Shown: positions 3,871 to 63,659, counted from the stretch's first letter. The stretch: 64,000 nt of DNA from Candidatus Saccharimonadota bacterium (GCA_017536895.1 JAFWCN010000001.1:13943-77942), one strand, 5' to 3'. The notes: generated from the sequence alone by a model not told the origin. Numbers and translations are program-made.

Positions 3871-6800
3871 ATGAAATATAGAGCTGGAGAACGCCGCAAG
3901 GCTATTGAATACGAAAAAGCCATCGCGAATTGGTGGAAAAAGAACAAAACTTTTGAACAATCGGTAGAGGAAAGACCAATCGATAAGTCCTACGTTTTTT
4001 ATGATGGACCACCGTTTTTGACTGGCCTTCCTCATCATGGACACTTGCTTGGCTCCACTATTAAAGACGTTGTTGGGCGGTACCAAACTATGCTAGGGAA
4101 ACGCGTGGAGCGTGTTTGGGGTTGGGATTGTCATGGTCTTCCAGCAGAGAATTACGTAGAAAAACAATTAAATATAACTGATCGTCGTGACATCGGTACT
4201 AAATGGTCGCTTGAAGATTATATATTGACTGCTAAGAAATCAATGGAAGAAATAAGCGATGAATGGGAACACACGATCACGCGTATTGGTCGTTGGGTCG
4301 ATTTCAAAGGCGCCTATAGAACCATGGACAAAAGCTTCATGGAATCCGTCTGGTGGGCCTTCAAGCAGCTCTACGAAGCCGGCAAAATCTACGAAGGTCG
4401 TAAAGTATTAATGTACGATACTAAGTTTGCTACTCCAGTCTCTAAAGCCGAAGTCACCATGGATAATGACGCCTACCAAACCGTCACCGATCCAAGTGCG
4501 TATGTGAAGTTCAAACTTGTGCTTCAAGAATCTGGAAATGCTTCTGTTCGAGGGCTTCCGGAGGTTACGACCGAGGATGAGGGCGCGAGCCCCGTAACGA
4601 CGGGCGCGAGCGACCCGTCCCGAGAAAGAAGCATTCCAGATTCTTACATGTACATGTTGGCTTGGACTACTACACCTTGGACCTTGATGGGTAATCGCAT
4701 GCTAGCCGTTAACCCTAAAATGACTTATGTCAAGGTTAAGGTAGGAGATGAGATATTTATCTTAGCTAAACCTCGTCTCGAAGCCATTCTTAAGGACACA
4801 GACTATAAAATAATCGAAGAATTCAAAGGCAAGACTTTGGAGGGATTAACTTATGAATCTATCGATGGTACGACTTGTAAGGTTTATGCTGCCGACTTCG
4901 TCGGCGAAGAAGAAGGTACCGGTATTGTACACTGCGCCCCCGCCTACGGTGAAGACGACTATTCTTTGTATTTAGAGCACGAAGATGAAATCGAGTTCGT
5001 CGACACCCTTGATGAAAACGGCTACTATATTAAAGAGTATGCCGACAAACTCCACAAAATTGGAGTTCGTGATACTGACGAACATGGTATTCAAATCTGG
5101 GCCGGTAACAAGTTTATTGCTAAATGTATGGAAGAAAAGGGCATTATCTACAAGATCGAGTATATTCAACATGAATACCCATTTAATCCAAGAAGTAAAG
5201 AGCGCATCATGTATCGCGCCTTTCCATCCTGGTTCTTTGATGTAGATGGTCAAAAAACCATGATGCTAGCCGAAAATGAACACATTAACTGGTTCCCAGG
5301 TTACCTCAAGCATGGCCGCTTTGCCAAGAACATCGAAGCCGCCCCTGACTGGAACTTATCAAGGGATCGTTTCTGGGCTACCGCCATGCCAGTTTGGAAA
5401 GGCGATAAAGGTTCAATCAAAGTAGTCGGCAGTTACAAAGAACTTGAAGAGCTATCTGGCAAAACTCTCGAAGACTACCACCGTCCTTGGGTTGATGAAG
5501 TTGAATTCGATATTGATGGCGAACATTTCACTCGTATTGAAAAGGTCCTAGACTGCTGGTTTGAGTCTGGCTCCATGCCTTTTGCTCAGCTTCATTACCC
5601 ATTTGAAAACAAGGAGAAATTCGAACGTAACTACCCAGCTGATTTCATCGTCGAATACGTCGGCCAAGTTCGAGCTTGGTTCTACTATGTTCACGTCGTC
5701 AATACCGCCCTTGCCGAAATCGGTGCCTTTGGTGAAAAAGCCAAAAAGGGCGCCAAAAACGCCTACAAAAATGTTATTACTACCGGCACTATCGCTGGCA
5801 ACGACGGGCGCAAAATGTCTAAATCCATTGGTAACTACACCGACCCGAATAATCTCATGGATCAATACTCCGCTGACGCTTTGCGTTTCTTACTCTTATC
5901 TTCGCCAGTTTGCGCAGGTGAAGACTTTGCCTTGATCGATAAAGACGTCAACGACGTCAACCGCAAACTCGCCATGATTTGGAACGTTTACGATTTCTTC
6001 ACTACATACGCTGAAGTTGAGGGCCTATCACCGGAAGATTTTAATAATACTCTTTTGAGGAGCATATTTGCCGACGGGGCAAATACGGAGCGACCGAGCC
6101 CTGTAACGACAGGAGCGAGGGAGCGTTCCGAAAAAGAGGTATTATTAAAATCTCCTATGGACAGTTGGATAATTTCGCGTATATATGAGCTAAGAAATCA
6201 AATCACCGAAGGCATGGAAGAATATAACATTCCAAAAGCCCTAGAGAATGTTTTGCCGTTTATCGATGATCTCTCCAACTGGTTCGTTCGTCGCTCTCGT
6301 CGCCGCTTCTCCAAAAACGACGATGCTGAGGATAAAAAGCAAGCCTTTATCACCCTTCACTATGTTCTGATCTATCTTTCAAAGCTCCTCGCGCCGTTTA
6401 CTCCATTTCTAACCGAAGAACTATACCAAAAGATGACCGGCAAAGAAGAGTCCGTCCATCTGTTAGAATGGCCAAAGTCAGGTATAATTGACCAAAAGAT
6501 ATTAGACAACATGGCTCGCACCCGCCAGATTATCACCGATGCTCTTGCCCTTAGAATGCAAAAATCTGAGACAGAAGAACAGATTAAAATCCGCCAGCCT
6601 CTAGCCAAACTTACCTATGATGGTGACAAACTAGACGATTATTATGAGAAGATCATTGCCGACGAGGTAAATGTTAAAGAAGTAAAGCATGGCAAAAAGC
6701 TTACCCTCGACAAGAAGCTTACCAAGGAGCTTAAGGAAGAGGGAAGAGCCCGCGAGATCATTCGTGCCGTCCAGGCCGCGAGAAAGCATGCCGGTCTCCA

Positions 6801-6972
6801 AGTTGACGATGAGATCAAGCTCTCACTCTCCTGCGACCTACCAAAAGCCTATGAGGGCCTCATCAAAACCGAAACAGGCACCAAAGAGCTCACTAAGAAC
6901 CAAAACTATGCTCATGACGAAATCGCCAAGATAAACGGCGAAAATATCACAATTTCTCTAGAGAGAGTTTAA
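3871..6972 (+). CDS. ileS: Isoleucine--tRNA ligase (type 2-like) with two in-frame palindromic insertions
   Basis: FYDGPPFLTGLPHHGH, GWDCHGLP, WTTTPWTL, WNLSRDRFW, KMSKS. Confidence 0.97.
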   Translation: MKYRAGERRKAIEYEKAIANWWKKNKTFEQSVEERPIDKSYVFYDGPPFLTGLPHHGHLLGSTIKDVVGRYQTMLGKRVERVWGWDCHGLPAENYVEKQLNITDRRDIGTKWSLEDYILTAKKSMEEISDEWEHTITRIGRWVDFKGAYRTMDKSFMESVWWAFKQLYEAGKIYEGRKVLMYDTKFATPVSKAEVTMDNDAYQTVTDPSAYVKFKLVLQESGNASVRGLPEVTTEDEGASPVTTGASDPSRERSIPDSYMYMLAWTTTPWTLMGNRMLAVNPKMTYVKVKVGDEIFILAKPRLEAILKDTDYKIIEEFKGKTLEGLTYESIDGTTCKVYAADFVGEEEGTGIVHCAPAYGEDDYSLYLEHEDEIEFVDTLDENGYYIKEYADKLHKIGVRDTDEHGIQIWAGNKFIAKCMEEKGIIYKIEYIQHEYPFNPRSKERIMYRAFPSWFFDVDGQKTMMLAENEHINWFPGYLKHGRFAKNIEAAPDWNLSRDRFWATAMPVWKGDKGSIKVVGSYKELEELSGKTLEDYHRPWVDEVEFDIDGEHFTRIEKVLDCWFESGSMPFAQLHYPFENKEKFERNYPADFIVEYVGQVRAWFYYVHVVNTALAEIGAFGEKAKKGAKNAYKNVITTGTIAGNDGRKMSKSIGNYTDPNNLMDQYSADALRFLLLSSPVCAGEDFALIDKDVNDVNRKLAMIWNVYDFFTTYAEVEGLSPEDFNNTLLRSIFADGANTERPSPVTTGARERSEKEVLLKSPMDSWIISRIYELRNQITEGMEEYNIPKALENVLPFIDDLSNWFVRRSRRRFSKNDDAEDKKQAFITLHYVLIYLSKLLAPFTPFLTEELYQKMTGKEESVHLLEWPKSGIIDQKILDNMARTRQIITDALALRMQKSETEEQIKIRQPLAKLTYDGDKLDDYYEKIIADEVNVKEVKHGKKLTLDKKLTKELKEEGRAREIIRAVQAARKHAGLQVDDEIKLSLSCDLPKAYEGLIKTETGTKELTKNQNYAHDEIAKINGENITISLERV
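4526..4645. repeat. In-frame palindromic element A (ileS)
   Basis: Arms AAGAATCTGGAAATGCTTCT / AGAAGCATTCCAGATTCTT around core GCGAGCCCCGTAACGACGGGCGCGAGCGAC. Confidence 0.9.
6039..6150. repeat. In-frame palindromic element B (ileS)
   Basis: Arms TTTTAATAATACTCTTTT / AAAAAGAGGTATTATTAAAA around core CCGAGCCCTGTAACGACAGGAGCGAGG. Confidence 0.85.
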
Positions 6973-7130
6973 TTCTATATTTATTTCTTCGAAACATTTG
7001 AAATCGCCCATATAAAAATTACAACTAGCACGGATTTTGGAGGAAACTGTAATTTTCGACAAAATCCGCCTGCCGTTGTAATTTTTATCTTGGCGAGATT
7101 TCAACGTTGAGAAGAATAAATATAGAATTA
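6970..7130. repeat. ~160 bp long imperfect hairpin downstream of ileS (MITE-like)
   Basis: Nested inverted pairs: TAATTCTATATTTATT/AATAAATATAGAATTA, TTGAAATCGCC/GGCGAGATTTCAA, AAAAATTACAAC/GTTGTAATTTTT, CGGATTTTG/CAAAATCCG. Confidence 0.85.
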
Positions 7131-7176
7131 ACCTCTGTCAATTTGACAAAATGGGAAAATTTAAGCATAAAAGGTA

Positions 7177-7205
7177 TTGACAAATAAGCATAAGTGTGCT
7201 ACAAT
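7177..7205 (+). promoter_or_regulatory. Sigma70-type promoter
   Basis: TTGACA-17 bp-TACAAT with extended TG. Confidence 0.75.
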
Positions 7206-7271
7206 GAAATCAAGTTAGAAAATAAAATAAAAAATCTAACAAATAACAAACAAAAACAAGGAAAAATAAAA

Positions 7272-7508
7272 ATGACACAAACTAAAAAAGATACCGAAGA
7301 CACCGAAGATATCAAATTACCTAGCAAAGTAGTCGATTCTGAATGGAAAGACGACATCGACTATGAGACATACGAAGATGAAAAAACCTACGTTGCTCCA
7401 GATAGCATCAAAAGGGAAACAATTGCCAAGATTAAACGATCACCCATTAAACTATCCATCCGCAATTTAGTAGACTGGGATAAAGTCGATCAGAAACTTG
7501 CAGCCTAA
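7272..7508 (+). CDS. Small acidic hypothetical protein ending in KLAA
   Basis: ATG after AAGGA; own promoter and downstream terminator; 78 aa. Confidence 0.65.
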   Translation: MTQTKKDTEDTEDIKLPSKVVDSEWKDDIDYETYEDEKTYVAPDSIKRETIAKIKRSPIKLSIRNLVDWDKVDQKLAA

Positions 7509-7594
7509 GATAATAATTATCCTCTATGATCACAGTTAATGAATAAAAAGGAGACCAATGTAAGAAAAACACCAAAACCATAGATTACACTTTT

Positions 7595-7622
7595 AAAAAC
7601 CGAACAGTCTGTTCGGTTTTTT
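7595..7622. terminator. Intrinsic terminator
   Basis: AAAAACCGAACAG-T-CTGTTCGGTTTTTT. Confidence 0.8.
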
Positions 7623-7725
7623 CTTGCAAAGTTAGCCATACTATATCTTGACAATCCCCAGCATAAGTATTAAAATAGTATTAAACAAGGTTATACTTAA
7701 AAATAAAAGAAAGGTTTTTACCAAT

Positions 7726-8241
7726 ATGGACAACAACGATTTTAATTCTCTAGGGCTAGATGGAGTAACTCTACGTGAAGATTTATCAAACACAAACCCA
7801 GCTCCAGCAGCGTCAAATGAGCCAGCCTCACAAGAGCAAAATGCTACTGATGGCAGCTCCATTTTGAACGACCTCAGCGACGAAGAAACCATCGACCTTT
7901 TTGTCGAAGGCATCATGATTGAAAAAGGGGTTGAAGCACCTACTGAAGAAATCAAACAGGACCTTAAAAACAATCTTAAGGATCAATTATTAAAGGAGAT
8001 TGATCGTTCATTAATTGGTGAACTACCCGATGATAAACTCGAAGAACTCAATCGTCTTGCTACCGAACAAGGGCAAATCGACCCAAATCTAATTGCCCAA
8101 ATGATAGAAGAAGCTAAGCTCGACGTTACTGACATTGTCGGCACCACCATGGTGCGTTTCCGCGAAATCTACCTCGACAACAATCAAAATAGCACCAATA
8201 CTGATGAAACAGCTGAGCAAAATAATTCAACGGAGGAATAA
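7726..8241 (+). CDS. Acidic helical hypothetical protein
   Basis: Clean ORF; ATG after GAAAGG; TTGACA-17-TAAAAT promoter at 7648-7676. Confidence 0.75.
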   Translation: MDNNDFNSLGLDGVTLREDLSNTNPAPAASNEPASQEQNATDGSSILNDLSDEETIDLFVEGIMIEKGVEAPTEEIKQDLKNNLKDQLLKEIDRSLIGELPDDKLEELNRLATEQGQIDPNLIAQMIEEAKLDVTDIVGTTMVRFREIYLDNNQNSTNTDETAEQNNSTEE

Positions 8242-8243
8242 TC

Positions 8244-12146: not shown

Positions 12147-12173
12147 CATTAATAATATAAAATAAGGAGAAAT

Positions 12174-13595: not shown

Positions 13596-13612
13596 CGACT
13601 AATCTTTAACAA

Positions 13613-30937: not shown

Positions 30938-31627
30938 ATGTTAGAGTTAAAGGATATTAGTTGTAGTGTCAAAGGTGGGTCTAGGGGCAAAATCCTAGAC
31001 CATATTTCGCTCCGTATCAAAAAAGGTAGCTTCACGGTTATCACCGGTCCCAACGGCAGTGGCAAATCCACTCTCGCCGATATTATTATGGGCATCAAAA
31101 CTCCCACTACTGGTAAAATCTTTCTAGAGAGTAGAGACATCACAAACCAAACTATCACCGAACGCGCTGAGGATATCGCCTACTCTTTTCAACAACCAGT
31201 CAAATTTAAAGGCATCACCGTTTACGACCTTCTAAATATCGCCAGCGGAGAATTAATCGCACCCGAAGAAGCTAGCAAACATCTAAAAAAAGTCGGCCTA
31301 AATCCCGAGGATTATCTCACAAGGGAGATTAACGACAAACTTTCTGGTGGGGAATTAAAGCGTATCGAAATCGCCTCCGTGCTCGCCCGTCCTGCTAAAC
31401 TCTTCATTTTTGACGAGCCCGAAGCCGGTATCGACCTCTGGAGTTTTGATAATCTCATCAAGATTTTTAAAAAGCTAAAAAAAGAGCAAAAAACCATCAT
31501 CATTATCTCTCACCAAGAAAAAATTCTAAAACTCGCTGACGAAATCATCATCCTTGAAAAAGGAAAGATTAAATCAAAAGGCACTCCGAGTGAAATCCTG
31601 CCACAAATCAAAGGAGCCAAACCATGA
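30938..31627 (+). CDS. sufC: SufC/SmsC-like ABC ATPase
   Basis: GPNGSGKST, LSGGELKRIE, IFDEPEAGID; upstream of a SufB-like gene. Confidence 0.85.
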   Translation: MLELKDISCSVKGGSRGKILDHISLRIKKGSFTVITGPNGSGKSTLADIIMGIKTPTTGKIFLESRDITNQTITERAEDIAYSFQQPVKFKGITVYDLLNIASGELIAPEEASKHLKKVGLNPEDYLTREINDKLSGGELKRIEIASVLARPAKLFIFDEPEAGIDLWSFDNLIKIFKKLKKEQKTIIIISHQEKILKLADEIIILEKGKIKSKGTPSEILPQIKGAKP

Positions 31628-32646
31628 ACCTAACCGATGAAGAGAAACAGATCTTCTGTGAAGTACTAGCCGAAAATGATATTTTGAGGGAATCCGGAGC
31701 CTGGCAAGGCGAGGACGAGCGCGCGAGCCCCGTGGCGACGGGCGCGAGCGACGCGGCCCGAAAAAGATCATTTCGGCTAGCCTACAAAGGAGCCTACAAC
31801 TTTCGCGTTAACGGCAAATCTGTCGGCCGAAACTCCACCAAAAACATCGATGTGAAACCTAAAACCGACAGATCCGGCCTCGACATCACTATCAAACCAG
31901 GCACCAAAAACGAACAAGTCCACATTCCCGTCGCCATCAGTGCCACTGGTATCAAAGAAGCAGTTTATAACGATTTTTACATTGGCGATAACGCCGAGGT
32001 TACCATCATCGCCGGCTGCGGTATCTATAATTGTGGCCCTACCGACTCAGTCCACGACGGCATCCATCGTTTTTACGTTGGCAAGAATGCCAAAATCAAA
32101 TACATCGAAAAGCACTACGGTTTTGGTCCCGGTAGGGGAGGAAAGATCCTTAACCCCGTCACCGAAGTGCATTTACAAGAAAACTCCGAAGCTAGTCTAG
32201 AACTCGAACAAATCAAAGGCGTCGACTCCACTATCCGCAAAACTACTGCCGATCTCGATAAAAACACTAAACTCATCGTCAAAGAACGCCTATTCACTCA
32301 CGGACGTCAAACTGCCGAATCAATCTACGAAGTAGCATTAAACGGCAAAGATTCCACCACCGACATCGCCTCTCGTTCCATCGCGCAAGATTTATCCAAA
32401 CAATCTTTCAAAGCCACCATCATCGGCAACAACAAATGCCGTGGTCACTCCGAGTGCGATGCCATCCTCATGGACGAAGCCGAGGTTCATGCTATCCCCG
32501 CGCTAGATGCTAAAACCAAAGATGCCGAACTAATCCACGAAGCCGCCATCGGCAAAATCGCGAGCGACCAAATCAAAAAGTTAATGACCCTCGGCCTCAC
32601 CAAAAAACAAGCCGAGTCAAAAATCATCAACGGCTTTCTTCATTAA
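31624..32646 (+). CDS. sufB: SufB/SufD (SmsB-like) Fe-S scaffold with an in-frame palindromic insertion
   Basis: IIAGCG, YIEKHYG, SECDAIL, IHEAAIGKI..LMTLGL..IINGFL. Confidence 0.85.
   Translation: MNLTDEEKQIFCEVLAENDILRESGAWQGEDERASPVATGASDAARKRSFRLAYKGAYNFRVNGKSVGRNSTKNIDVKPKTDRSGLDITIKPGTKNEQVHIPVAISATGIKEAVYNDFYIGDNAEVTIIAGCGIYNCGPTDSVHDGIHRFYVGKNAKIKYIEKHYGFGPGRGGKILNPVTEVHLQENSEASLELEQIKGVDSTIRKTTADLDKNTKLIVKERLFTHGRQTAESIYEVALNGKDSTTDIASRSIAQDLSKQSFKATIIGNNKCRGHSECDAILMDEAEVHAIPALDAKTKDAELIHEAAIGKIASDQIKKLMTLGLTKKQAESKIINGFLH
31666..31780. repeat. In-frame palindromic element C (sufB)
   Basis: Arms CTAGCCGAAAATGAT / ATCATTTCGGCTAG; core GCGAGCCCCGTGGCGACGGGCGCGAGCGACGCGGCCC. Confidence 0.88.
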
Positions 32647-32766: not shown

Positions 32767-34965
32767 ATGTTCAAAAGAATCGTCAAAAGAGACGGCAAAA
32801 TCGTAAAATTTGATCCCGAAAAAATCACCGAGGCCATCGCGAAAGCTGGTCTTGCTACCGAAGAATTCAAATACGACCGAGCCAAAGCCTTAACCGACAA
32901 AGTCATCAACCGTGCCGACGAAGAGATTACTACTCGTACTCCTAACGTCGAACAAATCCAAGACATCGTCGAAGAAGTTTTGATGGAATCCAGTTTTAAG
33001 AAGACTGCTAGGGAATACATCCGCTATCGTCAAGAACGCTCTCGTCGTCGCGAAGCTAAATCTGATCTTATGATGATTTATCGTACGATTAGCCATGCTG
33101 ACGCTTCTGAGGATTCTGACGTCAAAAGGAGCAATGCTAACGTCGATGGTAATTCTGCCATGGGTAAAATGCTTCAATTTGGCGCGGAAGGCTCCAAAGT
33201 CTTCGCAAAATCATTATTGCTTCGTCCTGACATTGCCGCCGCCCATGACAATGGCGACATTCATATTCACGACCTAGATTTTTATGCTACTGGTACTTTG
33301 ACTTGTTGTCAGTCCGACCCATTCGTATTGTTTGAAAATGGCGGATTTAACACCGGCCACGGTCACCTTCGCACTCCGAACTCTATTGGCTCTTATGGCG
33401 CTCTCGCTGCCATCCTCCTTCAAGCCAATCAGAACGAACAACATGGTGGTCAATCCATCCCGAATTTTGATTATGCTATGGCTCCGGGCGTCAATAAATC
33501 ATTTAGAAAAGCCTTAAAGCGCAACCTCAAAAAATACAACAAATTCGCCGGTAAGAAACTTGACCTCGAAGTCAAAGACACTTACGAATATGGCAATGAC
33601 GATAAATTGAAAAAGGCAAAATGGCCAAAGGAAGTCATCGAGGCTTCAAACGAGGACGTCGAGCGTGAAACTCTCCAAGCCATGGAAGGCTTCGTCCACA
33701 ACCTCAACACCATGCATTCTCGCGCCGGTGCTCAGGTGCCATTTACCTCAATTAACTTCGGTACCGATACCAGTCCAGCTGGCCGACTAGTTTCAAAAGA
33801 TTTGCTTGAAGCTACCGCCAATGGTCTCGGCAAGGGCGAAACTCCAATCTTCCCAATTAGTATCTTCAAGGTCAAAGAAGGCGTCAACTACAATCCAGAA
33901 GATCCAAACTACGACCTCTTCAAGCGTTCGATGGAAGTTTCTGCTAAGCGCTTGTTCCCGAACTTCTGTTTTATCGATGCTCCATATAATCTCAAATACT
34001 ACAAAAAGGGTGACTATCGCACCGAGATTGCTACCATGGGTTGTCGCACGCGTGTTTTTGCCAGTATCTTCCCAGAATCCGATGGTATCGTCACTGGCCG
34101 CGGTAACTTATCTTTCACCACTATTAACCTAGTCCGTATCGGCATCAAACACGGTATTTGTTTGAAAGAGCGCAAAGAAGCCGACTGGGATGGATTTTAC
34201 CACGAATTAGACGAAAAGCTTGAGCTCGTCAAAGATGAACTCTTAGAACGTTTTGAATTCCAAGCTAATCAGCACGTCCGCAACTTCCCATTTCTCATGG
34301 GGCAAGGGAACTGGTTTGGCTCCGAGAAGCTCGGCTGGAATGATACATTAAGAGATGTCATCAAACACGGCACTCTGTCTATCGGCTTTATCGGTCTCGC
34401 CGAGACACTAGTCGCTATGACCGGCAAACACCACGGCGAAGACGAAGAAGCTCGCGAACTTGGTCTCGACATCGTCAGCCATATGCGTGAGAAGTGTGAC
34501 GGTTTCAGCAAGAAATATAAACTCAACTTCAGCCTTCTTGCTACTCCAGCTGAAGGTATCGCTGGTCGCTTTACCAAGATTGACCGCAAAGAATTTGGCA
34601 AAATCAAAGGCGTCACCGATAGGGAATTCTATACCAATTCCTTCCATGTGCCAGTTTATTACCCAATCAGCGCTTTCGAGAAAATCGAAATTGAAGCTCC
34701 ATATCACAATCTCTGTAATGCGGGCCATATTACCTATATCGAACTAGATGGTGACCCATCACAAAATATCGCTGCCTTTGAATCAGTCATCCGTAAAATG
34801 CACGACGAAGGTATCGGTTATGGTTCCGTTAACCATCCAGTTGACCGCGACCCAATCTGTGGCTTCTCCGGTATCATCACCGGTGACCGTTGTCCACACT
34901 GTGGCCGCCTCGAAGGTGATGTCCCGTTCGAGAAAGTATGTAATTGTGCGAAAGGTAATGCATAA
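32767..34965 (+). CDS. nrdD: Class III (anaerobic) ribonucleoside-triphosphate reductase, lacking the glycyl-radical tail
   Basis: ATP-cone, HIHDLDFY, TCCQ, HNLNTMHSRAGAQVPF, TMGCRTR, GRGNLSF, ATPAEG, YTNSFH. Confidence 0.93.
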   Translation: MFKRIVKRDGKIVKFDPEKITEAIAKAGLATEEFKYDRAKALTDKVINRADEEITTRTPNVEQIQDIVEEVLMESSFKKTAREYIRYRQERSRRREAKSDLMMIYRTISHADASEDSDVKRSNANVDGNSAMGKMLQFGAEGSKVFAKSLLLRPDIAAAHDNGDIHIHDLDFYATGTLTCCQSDPFVLFENGGFNTGHGHLRTPNSIGSYGALAAILLQANQNEQHGGQSIPNFDYAMAPGVNKSFRKALKRNLKKYNKFAGKKLDLEVKDTYEYGNDDKLKKAKWPKEVIEASNEDVERETLQAMEGFVHNLNTMHSRAGAQVPFTSINFGTDTSPAGRLVSKDLLEATANGLGKGETPIFPISIFKVKEGVNYNPEDPNYDLFKRSMEVSAKRLFPNFCFIDAPYNLKYYKKGDYRTEIATMGCRTRVFASIFPESDGIVTGRGNLSFTTINLVRIGIKHGICLKERKEADWDGFYHELDEKLELVKDELLERFEFQANQHVRNFPFLMGQGNWFGSEKLGWNDTLRDVIKHGTLSIGFIGLAETLVAMTGKHHGEDEEARELGLDIVSHMREKCDGFSKKYKLNFSLLATPAEGIAGRFTKIDRKEFGKIKGVTDREFYTNSFHVPVYYPISAFEKIEIEAPYHNLCNAGHITYIELDGDPSQNIAAFESVIRKMHDEGIGYGSVNHPVDRDPICGFSGIITGDRCPHCGRLEGDVPFEKVCNCAKGNA

Positions 34966-35612
34966 TGGAGCTTGGCAAAAATCGGTCTGGGGCATTTCGG
35001 AGCGCGGCAGCGCGAGAATTAGCGCGCGAGCCCCGTGGCGACGGGCGCGAGCGACGCGGCCCCAGACCGAATTTTGCAAGCTCTCTTGATAGGATTTCCC
35101 GTCAGTTAGATACCCCCGAGGGTTACATTCGTTTGAGTGGGCCCTTGGAGCACGACAACATCGTCAACGGCGACGGTCTTCGCGCTGTCCTCTGGACCCA
35201 AGGCTGTCCTAACCACTGTCCCGGTTGCCAAAATCCCGAAACATGGGACTATGAATCCGGCTATCTCGCAAAAATTGACGACCTTAAGGAAGAACTAAAA
35301 ACTTTCAAAGGTCAAGCCGGTCTCACCTTCTGTGGCGGGGAACCATTTGTTCAGGCTAAGGCCTGTAAGGAAATTGCCGACTGGTGTCATGAGGAATTAG
35401 GTTGGAATATTTGGAGCTTCTCCGGCTTTACTTATGAAACCATCAAAGAATACGGTAGAGAACCTTGGGAATTTCTTAAGTCACTTGATGCTTTGATTGA
35501 CGGTCCTTTCATTTTATCACAGCGTGATTTAAGCCTCAAATATCGTGGCTCCAAGAATCAACGTCTCCTACATCTAGAACGAAGTAAAGGAAAAATTTTA
35601 TCAATTGAATAA
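34965..35612 (+). CDS. nrdG: Anaerobic RNR activating radical-SAM enzyme with N-terminal palindromic insertion
   Basis: QGCPNHCPGCQNPETW (CxxxCxxC), GLTFCGGEPF, RGSKNQR. Confidence 0.93.
   Translation: MELGKNRSGAFRSAAARELAREPRGDGRERRGPRPNFASSLDRISRQLDTPEGYIRLSGPLEHDNIVNGDGLRAVLWTQGCPNHCPGCQNPETWDYESGYLAKIDDLKEELKTFKGQAGLTFCGGEPFVQAKACKEIADWCHEELGWNIWSFSGFTYETIKEYGREPWEFLKSLDALIDGPFILSQRDLSLKYRGSKNQRLLHLERSKGKILSIE
34968..35083. repeat. In-frame palindromic element D (nrdG)
   Basis: Arms GAGCTTGGCAAAAATCGGTCTGGGGC / GCCCCAGACCGAATTTTGCAAGCTC; core identical to element C over about 38 bp. Confidence 0.9.
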
Positions 35613-36514: not shown

Positions 36515-38023
36515 ATGACCAAACAAACTACCTCAGGTTCAGAACGTATTGAACGGGCTGTTGAAATGGCGAAAAAAGCTCATGCGGGGCAATCTCGTAA
36601 AACTGGTGAACCCTACATTATTCATCCGCTTGCAGTCAAGAAAATCCTCGAAGAATGGGGTATGGATGAAGATACTATCATTGCCGGAATACTCCACGAT
36701 ACCGTCGAAGACACCAGCCTTTCACTCGATGATATCAAAAAAGAGTTCGGCTCTTCGGTTGCTTTTTTGGTTGACGGCGTGACCAAGCTGTCTACTGCTC
36801 GTAATGGTATGCGCGACATCGATACCTATCTTCCAGCTACCAGGGACAACTTCCTCAGATTAATGATTGCGCTAGGCGATGATATCCGAGTTCTCATCAT
36901 CAAACTTGCCGATCGCCTTCATAATCTTCGCACTCTTTCCGCTCTTCCTCCCGAGAAGCAAAAGAAAATCGCCAAAGAATCCCTTGAAGTATTCGCTCCG
37001 CTCGCCGACCGACTTAACATGGGGTTACTTCGCGTTGAAATGGCGGACCTCGCCTTTAAGTACGTTGACCCTAAACGCTTTGATGAGCTAAAAACACTAA
37101 TTGAAAAATACAATAAAGCCGCCGAAAAAACTCTTACCAAAATCAAAGCTGAAATTTCTGCTGCTCTAAAAAAAGAGAAAATCGAGTTTTCTATCTCTGG
37201 TCGCGTGAAGTCAGTTTACTCGCTTCACAAGAAACTCGCCAAACACAATCAAAACATCAACGAAATCTATGATTTGACCGCTTTAAGAATCATCGTGAAC
37301 GATATCACAGATTGTTATCTGACTCTCGGTATCATCCATTCGCTCTATATGCCAATGAACGGCCGCATCAAGGATTATATCGCAATGCCAAAACAAAACG
37401 GTTACCAATCGCTTCACACTACGGTCATTACCAAAGATAAGAAAATCGTTGAAATCCAGATTCGCACCAAAGAAATGCATGAATATGCCGAACATGGGTT
37501 AGCGGCTAGCTTCTATTATAATGAACAAAAGCTCACTGAAAACTACAAAAAAGGGAAGATTGAGCATTTGCCTACTAACCTCCTCTGGATTTCCGAACTC
37601 CAAATGACTGCAGCGAAGCTACGCGAAGGTAAAAAAGTAGACCTCAAAAAGCTCAAACTCAACCTCTTTGCCGATAAAATATTTGTCTATACTCCTAAAG
37701 GCGATATTATCGATCTCCCAGCTGGTGCCATGCCACTTGATTTTGCTTATCGTCTCCATTCAGAAATTGGCGATCACGTCGTTGGCGTAAAAATTAACGG
37801 CAAGATGAGTAACCTGAACAAAAAATTAGAACAGGGCGATGTCGTTGAGATCCTCACCTCTAAAAATCAGACCCCAAAACAAACTTGGCTCGATAAAATA
37901 TTTACTCCACACGCTCGTGCTAAACTAATGCGAGCCTTGAATATATCAGCTCGTACTGCCGCCGGCGAGACTATCGAACGCCCAAAAAAGAAACGAAAAC
38001 CCCGCAAAGACACTAATTCTTGA
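36515..38023 (+). CDS. rel: RelA/SpoT homolog (HD + synthetase + TGS)
   Basis: PYIIHP, ILHDTVEDT, IKLADRLHN, GRVKS, PKQNGYQSLHT, EIQIRT, TPKG..DFAY. Confidence 0.93.
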   Translation: MTKQTTSGSERIERAVEMAKKAHAGQSRKTGEPYIIHPLAVKKILEEWGMDEDTIIAGILHDTVEDTSLSLDDIKKEFGSSVAFLVDGVTKLSTARNGMRDIDTYLPATRDNFLRLMIALGDDIRVLIIKLADRLHNLRTLSALPPEKQKKIAKESLEVFAPLADRLNMGLLRVEMADLAFKYVDPKRFDELKTLIEKYNKAAEKTLTKIKAEISAALKKEKIEFSISGRVKSVYSLHKKLAKHNQNINEIYDLTALRIIVNDITDCYLTLGIIHSLYMPMNGRIKDYIAMPKQNGYQSLHTTVITKDKKIVEIQIRTKEMHEYAEHGLAASFYYNEQKLTENYKKGKIEHLPTNLLWISELQMTAAKLREGKKVDLKKLKLNLFADKIFVYTPKGDIIDLPAGAMPLDFAYRLHSEIGDHVVGVKINGKMSNLNKKLEQGDVVEILTSKNQTPKQTWLDKIFTPHARAKLMRALNISARTAAGETIERPKKKRKPRKDTNS

Positions 38024-38120
38024 ATAGAATCCGCTAGATTGGTGGTTTGTTTGCGTGAAGCGCTACTATTTATAGAGCAAGCGCAAAAAACCGCCAAGAT
38101 AGCGGATTCTAACAAGAATT
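38015..38120. repeat. Palindromic element abutting the tRNA-Thr 3' end
   Basis: AATTCTTG..AGAATCCGCTA / TAGCGGATTCT..CAAGAATT; homologous to 54422-54530. Confidence 0.85.
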
Positions 38121-38195
38121 GGAGCCGTTGACTGGGCTTGAACCAGCGACCTGCTCGTTACGAATGAGCTGCTCTACCAACTGAGCTACAACGGC
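38120..38195 (-). tRNA. tRNA-Thr (CGT)
   Basis: Reverse complement GCCGTTGTAGCTCAGTTGG..CTCATTCGTAACGAG..GGTTCAAGCC..CAACGGCTCCA. Confidence 0.95.
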
Positions 38196-41485: not shown

Positions 41486-41562
41486 GGGTCGCTAGCTCAG
41501 TTGGCTAGAGCGCCTCGTTTACACCGAGGAGGTCAGGAGTTCGAGCCTCTTGCGACCCACCA
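41486..41562 (+). tRNA. tRNA-Val (TAC)
   Basis: GGGTCGC acceptor, CCTCG-TTTACAC-CGAGG, AGTTCGAGCC, CCA. Confidence 0.95.
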
Positions 41563-41750
41563 TAGAAAATACCCAACCATCTGGTTGGGTATTTTCTATA
41601 AATGTGTTGTAAAGAGGCAAGAACTCCGTAGGAGTTCGTTCGCGGTAGGAGCCGAGTAAAAATCTAAAACTTGTTTTAGATTTTTTGAGGCGACGCCCCG
41701 CGAGAGTGTTTTCGCTTTAGCGAAAACACGATGCCTCTTGCGACCCACCA
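41545..41750. repeat. 18-bp direct repeat of the tRNA-Val 3' end flanking a multi-hairpin element
   Basis: GCCTCTTGCGACCCACCA at 41545-41562 and 41733-41750, with four hairpins between. Confidence 0.88.
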
Positions 41751-54087: not shown

Positions 54088-54421
54088 GCGGCGACACTAA
54101 CACGACTTTTCAGAATTTACAACCCCCCACATTAAAATGCATTTATGTAGCACCTCAAAAACAACGATTGTTGTTAAGAGAGCATTAAATAACTTGTGGA
54201 AAACTCCGCCAAAAAAATACAAAAATTGTTCAAAAAATATATTGACATTAGCATTTTTTTGCGTTATTATAGAGGTAGCTTCTGAATAAAAAAATTATAC
54301 AGAAGGTCAAAACAAAAATATAGCCAAAATAACTCCACACTCTACAAATAAGACCGGTTTTCCTCGCAGTTACCGGTCTTATTCTTTTGTTGAAGTTATA
54401 TTTAGTTCATATAAACGGGAT

Positions 54422-54530
54422 AATTTCATAAATAAAATCCGTCAGATTGGTGGTTTCTTCGAGTGAAGCGCTATTATTGATAGAGCGAACGAGAAAAACC
54501 GCCAAAATGGCGGATTTTATTATGAAATTT
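54422..54530. repeat. Palindromic element abutting the tmRNA 3' end
   Basis: AATTTCATA..AAAATCCG / CGGATTTT..TATGAAATT; shares GATTGGTGGTTT, GTGAAGCGCTA and AAAAACCGCCAA with 38015-38120. Confidence 0.85.
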
Positions 54531-54882: not shown

Positions 54883-54979
54883 AACTGTTGTTAATTTTAC
54901 CATAACAGCTAAAATAATACAATAGGATCCGATCTATTTCGCACTAGAAGTAACAACAGAATTAATCCGAATTGGCTTA

Positions 54980-55058: not shown

Positions 55059-55476
55059 ATAAAATTGAACAAATCTCTTGCTTTTTTATTCCTTTTATGC
55101 TAAGCTAAAACTAGTCGAGATGACTAAACAAAAACTAAATACAAAAAGGCAAATTAACAAAATGAAAAAGGAAAAAACGTAAATTTTGGCGGGCGAAAAG
55201 GTAATTTCTAGCCATAAATTACAACCAGGAATTACCTAGAGCTCCGCTAAAAGCGTAGAGCGCATTGTCAAATCTCTTATTAGCACCTTCTTTAAGCATA
55301 AACAAGAGTAAGAGAAAAAAGGCAGTAAGGACACATGCTTCACCTAGCGTGAAGCGGTCAAAAAAGGGAAGGCGGATCAGGGCTCAGGTCAATAGTTAAG
55401 ATTTTAGGTACCCGATAGCCCCCGCCCCCTTCCAAAAATACTTGGGGGATTCAACCAGTTATGATACAATAAGGTT

Positions 55477-55830
55477 ATGAAACATAACCGTATTACACTC
55501 AGCTTAGGCATTATCGGACTCGCAGCTTTAATCCTCATGCTAAATTTTCTATCTCCGTCGGACATCGGACCGTTAGGGGTTTTATTATTTTTTACAACAG
55601 TCTATGTAACCATCTTTGGCTTCATCACATTCTTGATGGAGTCTTTTTTAAAAATCGCTTTCCGTCGCGAAAAGATGAGCAATAAAGACTATCTCTATTC
55701 AGCCGTGCTGTCGTTTGGACCGATTATGTTCCTAATGGCCAGGTCATTTGGCGCAATTTCTCTCTGGACCACCGCACTTATCATTATTTTTCTATTTTTA
55801 GCAGAATTTTTAGTCAAAAAACGAATATAG
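55477..55830 (+). CDS. Four-helix membrane hypothetical protein
   Basis: Hydrophobic 117-aa ORF, leaderless-type promoter. Confidence 0.7.
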   Translation: MKHNRITLSLGIIGLAALILMLNFLSPSDIGPLGVLLFFTTVYVTIFGFITFLMESFLKIAFRREKMSNKDYLYSAVLSFGPIMFLMARSFGAISLWTTALIIIFLFLAEFLVKKRI

Positions 55831-55847
55831 TGTGATAAAATAAGCAT

Positions 55848-56375
55848 ATGGACAATGGTCATGCAAATCCACCAGATAACTTATTGAAATTTCCAACTCC
55901 AAATAATGGAGAGTCAAACGACAATCTAGATCTCAGCAATCCGGAAACCAGTTGGGACCAGCCGATTCCTACAGAACATGACAAGAAGGCTATTGGTAGC
56001 TCCGCGCTCAACCCAGTTGAATTATCGATGCCACCCTCTACTCAAGAAATTACTCCACCTCTTGGCGAAATCACCGAACATAGCCTCCAACCAGAAGCTG
56101 CCCCGAAGATATATCAACTCTCATCAGACCAAAATAATATGAATAAGGAATCGGACACCAACATCATCGAAGAGGCCATCTCTTCCAGCTTGGAATCAGT
56201 CAAAACTACAGACAGGTTATCCGAGGAAAGCGTCAAGGCTACCGATGATTTTATCAATAAATTCGAAAAAGGCGAAATTGAATTGTCAGACTTCTATGAT
56301 AGCTCTAGAGATGCCATGGAAAACAATCTCAATAACTCCTACAACAGAAAACTAGGAGAGAAAGAGGCAGCATAA
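55848..56375 (+). CDS. Acidic, partly disordered hypothetical protein
   Basis: Clean ORF coupled (TAATG) to the next gene. Confidence 0.7.
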   Translation: MDNGHANPPDNLLKFPTPNNGESNDNLDLSNPETSWDQPIPTEHDKKAIGSSALNPVELSMPPSTQEITPPLGEITEHSLQPEAAPKIYQLSSDQNNMNKESDTNIIEEAISSSLESVKTTDRLSEESVKATDDFINKFEKGEIELSDFYDSSRDAMENNLNNSYNRKLGEKEAA

Positions 56376-58999: not shown

Positions 59000-59066
59000 G
59001 TTCTTGCTTTTTTAGTCCTCAAGGTGTATAATAGGGGGAGAATAATAAAGATGAGGTATAAACAAA

Positions 59067-61052
59067 ATGGCTGACAAAGCTGAAAATTATGATTCGTCCG
59101 AAATTCGGGTGCTAGAGGGGCTTGAGCCCGTAAGAATGCGTCCAGGCATGTATATCGGTTCTACCGGTTACGATGGTTTGCATCATTTAATCAAAGAAAT
59201 TGCCGATAACTCCATCGATGAGGCTATCGCTGGCTATGCCAACAAGGTTGATATCACTATTTTAAAAGATGGCGGTATTCGTATAGATGATAACGGCCGT
59301 GGTATCCCTGTAGATATTCACCCCAAAACCAAGAAATCCACCCTTGAGACAGTGCTTACCGTCCTTCACGCCGGTGGTAAATTCGGTGACGGTGGCTATA
59401 AGGTCTCATCTGGTCTTCACGGAGTTGGCTCATCTGTCGTAAATGCTTTGTCTACTAATATGGTCGCCGAAGTTTATCGCGACGGCAAGACCCATCACAT
59501 CGAATTTGACACTGGTAAACCAACCACTGAATTACAAGTTACGAAGGGTAGTCCTCGCGAATCAGGTACCTCTATTACCTTCTATCCTGACCCTTCCATC
59601 TTTAAGGAGACCACTACTTTTGATTACAACTGGGTATCAAATTATGCCCGTCATCAAGCTTATCTCACGAAGGGAGTCTTAATCACTGTTACTGATGAGC
59701 GGACTGGCGCTCACGAATCCTTCTACTTCGAAGGGGGAATCAAGAGTTATGTCAAGCGACTTAATCAAGGCAAGGAGCTCCTCGCTGATGATATTTTCTA
59801 CGTCGAGAAACAGGTTAAAGATTCTATGGTCGAAATCGCTCTCCAGTATAACGATAGTTTTGCTGAGACCATGAAGCCTTTCGCTAATAACGTCCTTACC
59901 CCTGATGGCGGTATGCATGTCGTTGGTTTTCGTACAGGTCTTACTCGTACAGTCAACGACTATGCTAGAAAAAACGGCCTCCTAAAGGAGAAAGAAGACA
60001 ACCTCACCGGCGATGATATCAAAGAAGGACTCACCGCTGTAATTTTGGTTAAACTTCCTGATCCACAGTTTGAAGGTCAGACCAAGAATAAACTTGGCAA
60101 CCCAGAGGTGCGCGGTTATGTTGATAAAGTTATGACCGAGTACTTTGGTTATTATCTTGAGGAAAACCCCGCTATCGCTAAGAAAATTGTCGGTAAAGCT
60201 ACTTTGGCCGCCCGTGCTCGCAAAGCCGCCCGTGCCGCTCGCGACAATGTCATCCGAAAAGGTGCCTTCGAAGGGCTTAATCTTCCATCCAAGCTCGCCG
60301 ATTGTTCATCTAGGAATAGAGAAGATTGCGAACTATTTATCGTTGAGGGTAATTCCGCGGCCGGTTCCGCTAAGGAAGGACGCAATCCTCAGATTCAAGC
60401 CATTCTACCTCTGAGAGGTAAGGTGCTCAACACCGAGCGCGCCCGTCTTGATAAAATGCTCGCTAACCAAGAATTAGTATCTTTAATCAAGGGGCTTGGC
60501 GTAGGTATTGGCGACCAATTTAATATCGATGGTCTCAGGTATGACAAAATCATCTTCATGACTGATGCCGATGTTGATGGTCTCCATATTGCTACACTTC
60601 TGATGACCTTCTTCTTCCGCTATATGCCACAAGTCATCGAAGAAGGCCATGTTTACCTAGCTAAACCACCTCTGTTTGGCCTCATTAAGGGCACTGGAAA
60701 CTCTCGTAAGATTGACTATCTCTATGATGAAGTTGCTCTCGAAAACAAGCTAACCGAAAAGATTGAGGAACGAAAGAGTAACGGTACCAAAATCGACGAA
60801 TCTCAAGAGAGGTTTAAGCAAGCTGGCTATACCGCCCAACAGCGCTTTAAGGGTCTTGGCGAAATGGATGCCAAACAGCTCTGGGAGACCACTATGGATC
60901 CCGAGAACCGCATTTTAGTCAAAGTTCACGTTGAAGATGCCGAAAAAGCCGATGCTGTATTTACAAAGTTGATGGGAGATCAGGTCGAACTCCGCAAAAA
61001 CTTCATCCAAGCCGGTGCCGCATCTGTTAACCTTGATGATTTGGACTTTTAA
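59067..61052 (+). CDS. gyrB: DNA gyrase subunit B
   Basis: LEGLEPVRMRPGMYIG, EIADNSIDE, HAGGKF, VEGNSAAG, MTDADVDG, RFKGLGEM. Confidence 0.97.
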   Translation: MADKAENYDSSEIRVLEGLEPVRMRPGMYIGSTGYDGLHHLIKEIADNSIDEAIAGYANKVDITILKDGGIRIDDNGRGIPVDIHPKTKKSTLETVLTVLHAGGKFGDGGYKVSSGLHGVGSSVVNALSTNMVAEVYRDGKTHHIEFDTGKPTTELQVTKGSPRESGTSITFYPDPSIFKETTTFDYNWVSNYARHQAYLTKGVLITVTDERTGAHESFYFEGGIKSYVKRLNQGKELLADDIFYVEKQVKDSMVEIALQYNDSFAETMKPFANNVLTPDGGMHVVGFRTGLTRTVNDYARKNGLLKEKEDNLTGDDIKEGLTAVILVKLPDPQFEGQTKNKLGNPEVRGYVDKVMTEYFGYYLEENPAIAKKIVGKATLAARARKAARAARDNVIRKGAFEGLNLPSKLADCSSRNREDCELFIVEGNSAAGSAKEGRNPQIQAILPLRGKVLNTERARLDKMLANQELVSLIKGLGVGIGDQFNIDGLRYDKIIFMTDADVDGLHIATLLMTFFFRYMPQVIEEGHVYLAKPPLFGLIKGTGNSRKIDYLYDEVALENKLTEKIEERKSNGTKIDESQERFKQAGYTAQQRFKGLGEMDAKQLWETTMDPENRILVKVHVEDAEKADAVFTKLMGDQVELRKNFIQAGAASVNLDDLDF

Positions 61053-61061
61053 GGAGGAGCT

Positions 61062-63659
61062 ATGAAAGACGAACAGAATTTGAACAAAAAACCATCAGAA
61101 AACCCATCCGAGGGAGCATTCGCGACAACGGGAGCGAACGGAGCGTCCGAGCCCCGTAACGACGGGCGCGAGGACAGCGTTCCCGAGGATGGTGTTTTTG
61201 ATGGTTTAGAGATTAAACCTGTTGAGAATACCATGGAAGACTACTTCCTTCGCTATTCCATGTCGGTCATTGTTGACCGCGCCCTCCCTGATGTTCGCGA
61301 TGGCTTGAAGCCTGTTAACCGTCGTATTCTCTATACCATGAACAAAAACGGCTGGAAGGCTCCACATGCCACGGTGAAATCCGCCCGTATCGTCGGTGAC
61401 GTCATGGGTAAATACCACCCTCACGGCGACTCTTCCATCTATATGGCGATGGTCAACCTCGCACAACCTTGGAAAATGCGTTACACTCTTATCGAAGGAC
61501 AAGGTAACTTCGGCTCGATGGACGGCGATGAACCAGCCGCCTATCGTTACACCGAGGCTCGCATGGACAAAGTTGGTGCCGAACTCCTTACCGATATCGA
61601 GAAAGACACCGTAGATTTTCGCGATAACTTCGATGGCACCGAGCAAGAACCAGTAGTTTTACCAGCTGCTCTCCCAAACATCCTCTTAAATGGACAAATG
61701 GGTATCGCAGTTGGTATGGCCACCAATATCCCCCCACATAATCTTGGGGAATTGGTTGATGCTACTGTTGCCCAGATTGATAACCCTGATATCACTCTTG
61801 ATGAATTGATGAAACACGTCAAGGGTCCAGATTTCCCAACTGGCGCTGAGGTCTACGGCGGGGAACCAATGAAACAAGCCTATGCCACCGGTAAAGGCTC
61901 CGTAGTCATTCGCGCCGTTACCAATATCGAAGAACGCAAAAATGGCCGTTACAATATCGTCATTACCGAAGTCCCATACGGTATGAGTAAAGAAGGTTTC
62001 ATCGAAAAAGTTCGTGAACTCGTCCTTGCCAAGAAACTAGATCACATCTCTGATGCTCGCGATGAGTCAGCCCGTGGTAAAATCCGTATCGTCGTCGAAC
62101 TAAAAAAAGACGCTTTCCCTAAGAAGATTCTAAACCAGCTCTATAAAATGACTGGGCTCCAAACCGCGTTCCACTATAATATGTTGGCTCTCGTCGATGG
62201 AGTTCAGCCGCGAATTCTCGGCCTTAAGGAAATATTGGCAGAATTTATTAAACACCGCCAAGTTGTCACACGTCGTCGCACTGAGTTCGAACTAAAGAAG
62301 GCTAAAGAGCGTGCTCACATCCTAGAAGGTTTGAAAATCGCCCTCGATAACATCGATGAAGTTATCGCTGTCATTCGCGCCTCTTATGACGATGCCGATC
62401 AACAGCTTATGAAGCGCTTCGGTCTCTCTGAGATTCAAGCGAACGCCATCTTGCAGATGCAACTTCGCCGTCTCCAAGGTTTGGAACGTGACAAGATTGA
62501 AGACGAGCTAAAGCAACTCCACGAACTTATCAAGAAGCTCGAAGCCATTCTCGCTGACGAGAAAGAAATTCTACGCGTCATCAAAGAAGAACTCCTTACC
62601 CTCAAGGAGAAATACGGTGACGAGCGCCGCAGCAAGATTATCAACCACGAAGTCGGCAAATTCTCTGAGGAAGAACTTATCCCCGAGGAAGAGAGTGTTA
62701 TCTTGCTCACCTCTGAAAACTACATGAAACGCGTCCCACAAACTGATTTTAGAAAGCAGAACAGAGGCGGTAAAGGCAAACGCGGTATGACCACTAAGGA
62801 AGAAGATGTCATCGCTCAGATTCTCACCGCTAACTCACATGACTTCTTGCTATTCTTTACTAATCAGGGGAGATTATTCCGTCTGAAAGCTTACGAAGTC
62901 CCGCAGGCTTCTCTAGCCGCTAAGGGTACCGCCGCTGTCAACCTTCTCAATATGCACCCCGAAGAGAAAATCACCGCCATCATCAAACAAGGTGATGCGG
63001 GCGCAGACGGCTTCCTCTTTATGGCTACCAAGAAGGGAACCATTAAGAAATCTGCCATCAAAGATTTCTTCAATGTCAGAAGTAACGGCCTCATTGCCAT
63101 CAAGCTCGACGCTGGTGATGAACTTCGCTGGGTCAAGGAGACCACCGGTGACCACGATATCGTCATCAGTACCTCCGCTGGCCAGGCTACCAGATTTAAC
63201 GAAAAAGAAGTACGAGCTATGGGTCGCGCCGCCAGAGGTGTTCGTGGTATGCGCCTCCGTCCGAAGGATGAAATCGTCGGCATGGATGTCGTCACTGATC
63301 CGAACCAGAAACTCATCGCTGTTTCTGCCAATGGTTACGGCAAAGCTACGCTAGTCTCCAATTTCCCACCTCATAAGCGCGGTGGCGTTGGTATTAAGGT
63401 TGCCGCTGTTACCGCGAAAACTGGTCCGATTGTCGCTGTTCATACCCTAGACCCTCTAGCCAAAGAAGTTATTATGATGTCAACCAAAGGCCAAGCTATC
63501 CGTGTCGCCATGAAGGAAATCCCGACCTTAGGCCGCGCCACCCAAGGCGTCCGCATTATGAAAATGTCTGAGGGCGACACTGTCGCATCTATCGGTATTG
63601 TTTTGCCCGAAGAAGATAATTCTGAAAGCACCGACAAAAAGACTGCCAAGAAAGCCTAA
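61062..63659 (+). CDS. gyrA: DNA gyrase subunit A with N-terminal palindromic insertion
   Basis: [30 protein letters not shown], GyrA-box QNRGGKG, CTD blades. Confidence 0.97.
61089..61207. repeat. In-frame palindromic element E (gyrA)
   Basis: Arms AAACCATCAGAAAACCCATCC / GGATGGTGTTTTTGATGGTTT; core CCGAGCCCCGTAACGACGGGCGCGAGG. Confidence 0.88.

Follow-up and report, generated by a model that had tools for sequence, protein, structure and literature searches.

The window analysed here is a stretch of 64,000 nucleotides from a Candidatus Saccharimonadota bacterium (GCA_017536895.1, JAFWCN010000001.1:13943-77942), which lies on contig 7 of a 99%-complete genome of 836 kb in 17 contigs, hereafter G000. 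It carries five copies of a palindromic element that sits in frame within ileS (two sites), a SufB/D-family gene, nrdG, and gyrA. The element is one of a multicopy family of gut and rumen Saccharibacteria, which is probably best understood as selfish, non-autonomous, and translated, and as being spread and remodelled by replication-linked template switching.

The core GAGCCCYGTRRCGACRGGMGCGAG occurs five times in the window, each time on the + strand (4587, 6096, 31725, 35028, and 61149), with 0 matches expected from 100 shuffles. A covariance model built from the genome copies matches exactly the same five elements at 4530-4642, 6037-6151, 31666-31780, 34969-35083, and 61092-61204, with E-values of 7e-21 to 7e-33. 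The five elements share one fold: an outer stem P1 of 20-27 bp, with a G-A/G-A two-by-two internal loop at its inner end, leads into a three-way junction that carries two hairpins, P2 on the left, which is specific to the subfamily, and P3 on the right, which is conserved (GCGCGAG-CCCCGT-NNNN-ACGGG-CGCGAGC). The fold energies range from -55.6 to -75 kcal/mol (z-scores between -5.3 and -9.0), and no shuffle is as stable. P3 is the best-conserved part of the element, consisting of direct GCGCGAG repeats around the small hairpin CCCCGT-NNNN-ACGGG at 4587-4610 (+), with counterparts on the same strand at 6096-6119, 31725-31748, 35028-35051, and 61149-61172. Among 100 copies from other genomes, P3 reaches up to 2.0 bits per position, the information falls to ~0 at the arm tips, and the conserved stretch at the junction measures only ~8-10 bp. 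As the arms cannot be aligned by MAFFT, the RNAalifold consensus is limited to the inner helices and gives no outer-stem covariation. Rfam 15 yields nothing at gathering thresholds in the window and nothing at E <= 1 on any element; a known structured RNA family and a self-splicing intron were therefore rejected as candidates.

The element at ileS site a spans 4526-4645 on the + strand, that is, residues ~219-258 of IleRS (model E 1.5e-31), and folds at -64.4 kcal/mol (z -6.4). Its outer stem reads AAGAATCTGGAAATGCTTCT.../...AGAAGCATTCCAGATTCTT, and its core is of the subfamily GLPEVTTEDEGASPVTTGASDPSR. The element at ileS site b (6033-6155, +; residues ~721-761; E 1.9e-24; -55.6 kcal/mol, z -9.0) has a core of another subfamily, whose P2 is ATTTGCCGACGGGGCAAAT. 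Near the N-terminus of the SufB/D-family gene (ORF—open reading frame—31624-32646), the element occupies 31666-31780 (+; E 6.8e-29), and the Pfam domain SUFBD_core begins after the insert. The fourth copy (34967-35084, +; E 7.3e-33; -75 kcal/mol) follows right after the start codon of a gene for an NrdG-type radical-SAM activase (ORF 34965-35612); its core is almost identical to that of the SufB/D copy, yet it is read in a different frame. The fifth lies at 61089-61207 (+; E 7.3e-21) in an N-terminal extension of gyrA (ORF 61062-63659). The first-pass annotation, made from the sequence alone, had placed five elements with a common GC-rich core in these genes, and its places differ from the model coordinates by a few bases only. 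It also holds in that all five copies leave their host ORFs, long ones on the + strand, without interruption, and that two reading frames are used, namely ASPVTTGAS, PSPVTTGAR, and ASPVATGAS in ileS and the SufB/D gene and EPRGDGRE and EPRNDGRE in nrdG and gyrA. One of its statements needs adjustment. The host names IleRS, NrdG, and GyrA agree with Pfam (IleRS is also so named by the sources), whereas the gene called sufB encodes a 340-residue SufB/D-family protein (SUFBD_core). The net gain relative to empty orthologues is about 30-41 residues.

For each of the five elements in the window, relatives have orthologues with an empty site. Neither insert is present in most congeneric IleRS genes. 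P0006 and P0018, the closest relatives with 84% and 77% identity across the query region, have nothing at site a and hold the same element as G000 at site b; site a is filled in P0003-P0005. Site b exists as empty and as differently filled alleles, with at least six core types among lineages, and the length of IleRS in the clade ranges from 964 to 1105 residues, largely because of such inserts. The gyrA genes of G011 and G002, 98% identical to that of G000 just downstream, are without the insert, and their ORFs are 35 residues shorter. Eighteen congeneric NrdG proteins align only from residue ~38-54, most of their ORFs being ~30 residues shorter, and in the three congeners that have the SufB/D gene, the alignment begins only at residue 49-55 and the ORFs are 21-43 residues shorter. 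The picture extends to TsaD, for which 121 homologues of 340-467 residues feature two sites filled or empty in many combinations. The filled alleles lack some host loop residues—at TsaD site 2, the seven residues that separate LR from FP in the empty consensus are missing—and comparisons of filled with empty alleles show host loop codons replaced, not duplicated. The direct CGAG at both core borders is part of the conserved junction and indistinguishable from element sequence, and no clear or consistent target-site duplication is seen among the copies.

In relatives, a third insertion site in IleRS, at about residues 545-552 of the window protein (EFDIDGEHF), is occupied by yet other insert families, such as EFDAWVPDAQGTSPEDRKLGRAPLSVSEGDVSEHSNYHLEHF and TTGDAAWGTPDGASATAGENAAAGP. 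Two further IleRS homologues have an unusual structure. In P0005 (876 residues), an IleRS sequence runs as far as the site-b element and continues from there as the C-terminal portion of a FemAB-family protein, and in G000 the FemAB-family protein carries this same element; in P0001 (1280 residues), a large IleRS block is repeated after an element. Both may be either metagenome mis-assemblies at the repeat or products of real recombination between copies. In G000, the PolA copy (C17:89878-89992) shows a partial tandem duplication of one arm and the core start (SEFGSETLNSRHA...DEFESETLNSRHA), and ValRS (C14:82842-82956) bears an apparent further insert near its N-terminus (DTLKGARPSLRSSKE).

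The core is multicopy in the genome, with 27 copies found in G000 by fuzzy core search and 38 by the covariance model, the highest number seen. Thirty-five of the 38 copies lie within ORFs of at least 150 residues that are open through the element, 15 in sense and 20 in antisense orientation, and so do 86 of 97 copies in seven other genomes, in either orientation. The hosts in G000, ten identified by Pfam and the rest named by eye, are almost all housekeeping genes: IleRS, ValRS, ArgRS, GatA, GatB, GyrA, PolA, PriA, Obg, Der, TsaD, a TsaE-TsaB fusion, RecX, NrdG, SufB/D, a pseudouridine synthase, a tRNA methyltransferase, FemAB, PepN, and others. The seven congeners hold 100 model matches in 693 kb. 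The exact core is present in 70 of the 121 species genomes of the genus at 0-24 copies each, a reversed control giving zero matches, and in 2 of 301 genomes, or 1 of 217 genera, of the order. Within the family, the model picks up divergent relatives with weaker matches in 15 of 95 genera, and it finds hundreds more copies in gut and rumen Saccharibacteria labelled "Candidatus Nanosyncoccus". In public data, the records that contain real elements carry the label Candidatus Saccharibacteria or Candidatus Nanosyncoccus and stem from ruminant and human gut; the few remaining ones are unlabelled or probably mis-binned short contigs. Single matches in high-GC phyla were set aside as chance. No viral contig carries an element, and a phage vector was rejected as the nine core-pattern matches on such contigs turned out not to be elements.

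An element offers on average 1.03 open frames of three in sense and 1.47 in antisense orientation; every intragenic copy is nevertheless open and in phase with its host, whereas the two G000 copies outside any ORF have no open frame among the six. Neither excision nor bypass would call for open, in-phase frames, and read-through is therefore favoured, with the inserts presumably translated as part of the host protein. The persistence of copies in essential genes would then follow if any copy that breaks the frame or brings in a stop is lost. G, S, A, P, R, and E are abundant in the encoded peptides, which are of low complexity and probably disordered. In an AlphaFold model of IleRS of low overall confidence (mean predicted local distance difference test score, pLDDT, of 54), both inserts are coil with pLDDT <50 between better-predicted strands (210-216 and 260-266) and helices (690-732 and 762-783), which hints at loop positions.

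The conserved core and the outer stem are decoupled from each other. Cores, at 61-66 nt, are 93-98% identical between copies of one subfamily; arms are 0.50-0.65 identical between copies, the conserved junction included and 0.50 being random, and 88% complementary within a copy. The outer stems are private to each copy. Inheritance of the arms from a donor copy was rejected for most copies, since cores 97-98% identical come with unrelated arms; a weak, degenerate arm consensus remains across copies. Strictly vertical arms with only the cores moving were likewise rejected as a full account, as the decoupling runs both ways. Among 128 elements of eight genomes, 72 orthologous same-orientation pairs have arms 0.61 identical (background 0.52) and cores 0.74 identical (background 0.70); some of these pairs combine a core identity of 0.96-0.98 with arms of 0.40-0.60, and others arms of 0.80-0.85 with a core of 0.69-0.78. 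At ileS site a, G000 has exactly the core of the distant G017 but arms that are ~20% different, mostly through compensated transitions; the closer P0003 has arms nearly identical to those of G000 and six core differences. Second elements nested in the P3 loop occur, as do internal deletions that leave little beyond the arms, for example, in the ArgRS of G000.

The tips of the stems can be traced to the host. At gyrA, the right tip GATGGTTT (61200-61207) consists of the conserved host D-G-L codons and is present in the empty alleles of G002, G006, and G011, whereas its left partner AAACCATC (61089-61096) is in none of these alleles in a base-level alignment. At ileS site b, the situation is reversed: the left tip GGAAGATTTT (6033-6042; GAAGATTT) consists of the conserved host S-E-D-F/L codons, and the right partner AAAATCTCC (6147-6155) is new. 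Elements of 38-41 residues yield a net gain of 30-35 residues. Given the host-derived tips and the missing loop residues, the stem therefore seems to extend outward in either direction, the sequence of one flank being replaced by the complement of the opposite flank. Whole arms as an inverted duplication of the target, suggested by a resemblance of the peptides, were rejected: neither arm is clear in the closest empty alleles of ileS site a and TsaD site 2, and loop codons are missing. A host origin is demonstrable for the stem tips only, not for the middle of the arms.

The elements are also ordered by DNA strand. In G000, 37 of 38 copies have the top strand (GAGCCCCGT...) on the strand of negative GC skew, that is, the C-rich one (p 3e-10), and their orientation to the host gene is about even; in the seven other genomes, the C-rich strand holds 73 of 97 copies (p 6e-7), nearly all exceptions being sense to the gene. 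At 18 orthologous sites, the element has opposite orientations in two species, and at 17 of the 18, only one of the two follows the skew rule. For the pair G355/G371, the flanks are ~88% identical, and the ~111-nt element including its arms is ~95% identical only as the reverse complement; this is an inversion in place. The top strand folds ~7.7 kcal/mol better than the bottom strand in 123 of 128 copies from eight genomes, an advantage that is the same whether the copy is sense (-7.8) or antisense (-7.6) to the gene, and the strand present in the mRNA shows no preference for the better fold (63 of 116 copies, p 0.18). Selection on mRNA structure is not supported by these figures, as the better-folding strand is independent of gene orientation. 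The asymmetry therefore belongs to the DNA strand and not to the transcript, and the conserved structure is one of DNA, not of mRNA. The GC skew of G000 is very strong, up to |0.4|; that of contig 7 is weak, with 88% of coding on the + strand. Leading/lagging polarity could not be taken from dnaA, because the skew of contig 14 keeps its sign there.

A recognised enzyme to move the element is missing from G000. Profile searches of the genome give no Y1_Tnp (PF01797; controls matched), TnpB, IS110 transposase, RVT_1, or DDE_Tnp_1, so that an HUH, TnpB, IS110, reverse transcriptase (RT), or DDE_Tnp_1 protein as helper was rejected; the search for RAYT/IS200-type HUH transposases proposed by the first-pass annotation comes out empty in this genome. 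In the model search, no element adjoins any rve, tyrosine recombinase, or serine recombinase gene of G000. The genome likewise gives no match to SbcD_C or MutS_V and may hence belong to a lineage without the hairpin nuclease and mismatch repair. In Escherichia coli, SbcCD attacks hairpins and mismatch repair restrains template switching; by analogy, the lack of SbcD and MutS matches would favour the survival of long palindromes.

In the mechanism proposed, the moving part would be the GC-rich core of ~70-100 nt, which would fold in single-stranded form into a Y-shaped three-way junction. Only frame-open copies would survive, leaving 30-40 extra low-complexity residues in tolerant loops or termini. 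The outer stem would not be carried unchanged from copy to copy but reshaped locally wherever replication errs at the hairpin (snap-back or template switching), a process in which the host flank is copied across the stem, such that the stem grows and the arms stay complementary. The same process could flip the whole palindrome in place and exchange or homogenise cores between copies. Spread, retention, or both would be coupled to one replication strand, with no dedicated transposase in G000 and probably without any trans-acting enzyme. A bolder version is put forward tentatively: the elements may form a class of mobile DNA that needs no transposase, in which the replication fork copies and exchanges the hairpin core by template switching, builds the stem from host codons, and flips the element, which is then translated.

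Several points weigh against replication-linked template switching. The process is read from its products. Neither arm is clearly seen in the closest empty alleles at ileS site a (P0006 and P0018) and TsaD site 2 (P0121). The strand bias outside G000 is only 75%, and there is no skew switch at dnaA (C14:63989-64459), so that the sign of the skew does not fix the leading strand. G000 encodes two rve-type transposases, three tyrosine recombinases (Phage_integrase), and two serine recombinases (Resolvase), all possible helpers, and the near-identical cores across species could reflect purifying selection on a protein-binding site, implying a trans-acting factor.

These last points lead to the main rival, a conventional non-autonomous transposon—a MITE (miniature inverted-repeat transposable element) or a relative of the palindrome-associated transposable elements (PATE-like)—moved, by cutting or copying and then pasting, by a trans-acting enzyme encoded elsewhere, which is possible but rather unlikely. 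The enzyme could be an unrecognised HUH/Rep-type nuclease that targets hairpins in single-stranded DNA, one of the rve or recombinase proteins of G000, or a product of a phage, a plasmid, or a lost element, and P3 would be its putative binding and nicking site. P3, with its direct repeats around a small hairpin, is reminiscent of the Rep-binding elements found at hairpin origins. The core, and P3 in particular, is very similar even between species with host genes only 70-85% identical, the strand bias is typical of single-strand transposition, the two hairpins are subterminal, and presence is patchy with variable copy number across the genus, all of which would suit such a transposon, as would the seven rve and recombinase genes just named. 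The 99%-complete genome with the most copies seen, however, gives no Y1_Tnp, TnpB, IS110, RT, or DDE_Tnp_1, and neither the surroundings of its rve genes nor the viral contigs hold a model match. Moreover, the copies have no terminal inverted repeat in common and no clear target-site duplication, and arms and core are not passed on together.

Removal at the RNA level and gene conversion alone are both less likely than this transposon. Under gene conversion, little or no ongoing transposition takes place: ancient, inherited insertions would have their cores homogenised in concerted evolution by conversion between dispersed copies, and their arms drifting at the neutral rate but kept paired through correction by the hairpin. 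The many sites common to species (the 72 same-orientation pairs among 128 elements described above) fit this, as does the observation that orthologous arms are slightly more alike than background while orthologous cores are no more so than random pairs; one site can, in addition, hold different core subfamilies with similar arms. Yet ileS site a is empty in the closest relatives in which site b is filled, the gyrA site is empty in relatives 98% identical downstream, and copy number runs from 0 to 24 among congeners; taken together, these observations show recent gains, losses, or both. The junction homology usable for conversion is, moreover, only the ~8-10 bp noted above, and gene conversion as the whole account is improbable. 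An RNA-level intervening sequence, either excised (for example, by an RNase III-type enzyme and a ligase) or acting as a bypass or regulatory hairpin such that the protein lacks the insert, would explain the very stable, conserved fold, the compensatory changes in all helices with many transitions via G-U, and the tandem G-A and GNRA-like loops, but is very improbable given that intragenic copies are always open and in phase and the two non-ORF copies of G000 closed in six frames, that ~40-55% of intragenic copies put the poorer-folding strand in the mRNA, and that Rfam gives no match even at E = 1.

Among known systems, the closest in behaviour are the Rickettsia palindromic elements (RPE-1 to RPE-10), small palindromic repeats that lie in frame in many ORFs and, according to PMC10969869, have no known transposase. 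The RPE-like behaviour that the first-pass annotation had proposed is borne out by the 38 hairpins of ~110-125 bp, 35 of them in open ORFs, and by the empty orthologous sites. Both families are palindromes of ~100-150 bp in the reduced genome of a host-dependent bacterium and add a peptide without breaking the gene (PMC10969869). They differ in that ~90% of the Saccharibacteria copies are intragenic compared with roughly half of the RPEs, and in the private stems built partly of host codons, the strand bias, the flips, and the nesting in the P3 loop, which are not reported for RPEs in the text consulted (PMC10969869). Rickettsia also belongs to a different phylum. The resemblance is one of behaviour; membership by descent is unlikely, because the exact core is confined to 1 of 217 genera of the order and real public matches are all from Saccharibacteria. 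A full-text literature search found no published description of such elements in Saccharibacteria or Patescibacteria.

Classical bacterial MITEs in genes (ERIC, QMITE1 of Coxiella, Correia) are short, non-autonomous hairpin repeats that can form in-frame fusions (PMC10969869, PMC5896051). A MITE is defined by terminal inverted repeats that are common to all copies and match a parent insertion sequence, usually with target-site duplications. The termini of the Saccharibacteria copies, in contrast, all differ, with an arm identity of 0.52-0.55 against 0.50 at random and ~0 bits at the tips; no parent insertion sequence with matching ends is found in G000, where the only transposases are the two rve genes, without a model match there. 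With its private arms and no common terminal inverted repeat, the element is not an ordinary MITE. Elements derived from IS200/IS605 and the REP/RAYT system undergo single-strand transposition by HUH Y1 enzymes, feature hairpins in one strand, and have no terminal inverted repeats. The present family is like them in its dependence on hairpins of one strand, its lack of terminal inverted repeats, and an orientation tied to the replication strand. It is unlike them in that G000 has neither a Y1 HUH gene nor TnpB and in that the elements lie within ORFs and not between genes; a conserved flanking tetranucleotide is not established for it. Quasipalindrome template-switch mutagenesis in E. coli perfects palindromes, extends stems, inverts the segment between inverted repeats, and is strand-asymmetric. 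It is, however, a mutational process acting on any palindrome, whereas the Saccharibacteria family has a conserved, spreading core. Integron attC sites have the opposite design, with conserved outer R/L boxes and a variable centre where the present elements have a conserved centre and variable arms, and they form arrays next to intI whereas the Saccharibacteria copies are dispersed inside ORFs. PARCELs of Mollicutes and other microbes are palindromic repeats within coding sequence that spread horizontally among microbes with small genomes, but they are tandem repeats forming amphipathic modules of surface proteins, in contrast to single, dispersed inserts in housekeeping enzymes (PMC2996958).

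At least three other palindromic families in G000 also combine a conserved interior with copy-specific outer arms of 15-27 bp. They are located at C1:75749-75936 and C16:11532-11718; at C2:23584-23750, C17:109123-109289, C11:27573-27742, and C2:62475-62642; and at C9:9538-9624 and C9:29936-30023. One of these families (TACAAC...GTTGTA) is present, in addition, at IleRS site b of G006 and G017, and the pair on contig 9 has the junction TTCGAGG...CCGAGAA in common with the main family. The window also holds two copies (38015-38122 and 54420-54530, - strand) of another palindromic family, unrelated to the first, which stand immediately 3' of the CCA ends of tRNA-Thr and tmRNA; the core of this family (GGCGGTTTTT...CGCTTGCTCTATAAATAGTAGCGCTTCAC...AAACCACCAATCT) is conserved, and its arms differ between copies and pair within each. 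At 41486-41750, ~175 bp of hairpins come after a tRNA-Val, and beyond them stands an 18-bp direct duplication of the tRNA 3' end (GCCTCTTGCGACCCACCA, 41733-41750), an arrangement that resembles an att scar left by a small integrated element.

If the inserts are translated, ~4% of the genes in an 836-kb genome carry 30-40 parasite-derived residues, among them the genes of many aminoacyl-tRNA synthetases, gyrase, DNA polymerase I, PriA, Obg, Der, and TsaD. This bears on the tolerance, and possible use, of selfish DNA by reduced genomes, on the origin of protein loops, and on the annotation and modelling of Saccharibacteria proteins; the repeats may also account for metagenome mis-assemblies such as the chimeric IleRS-FemAB ORF. 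With private stems, host-derived tips, one-strand orientation, flips, and no transposase, the family offers a tractable natural system for template switching at hairpins. Should the transposase-free reading be true, ultra-small bacteria without SbcD and MutS matches would harbour a new mode of DNA mobility and, with it, a steady source of new loops in their essential proteins.

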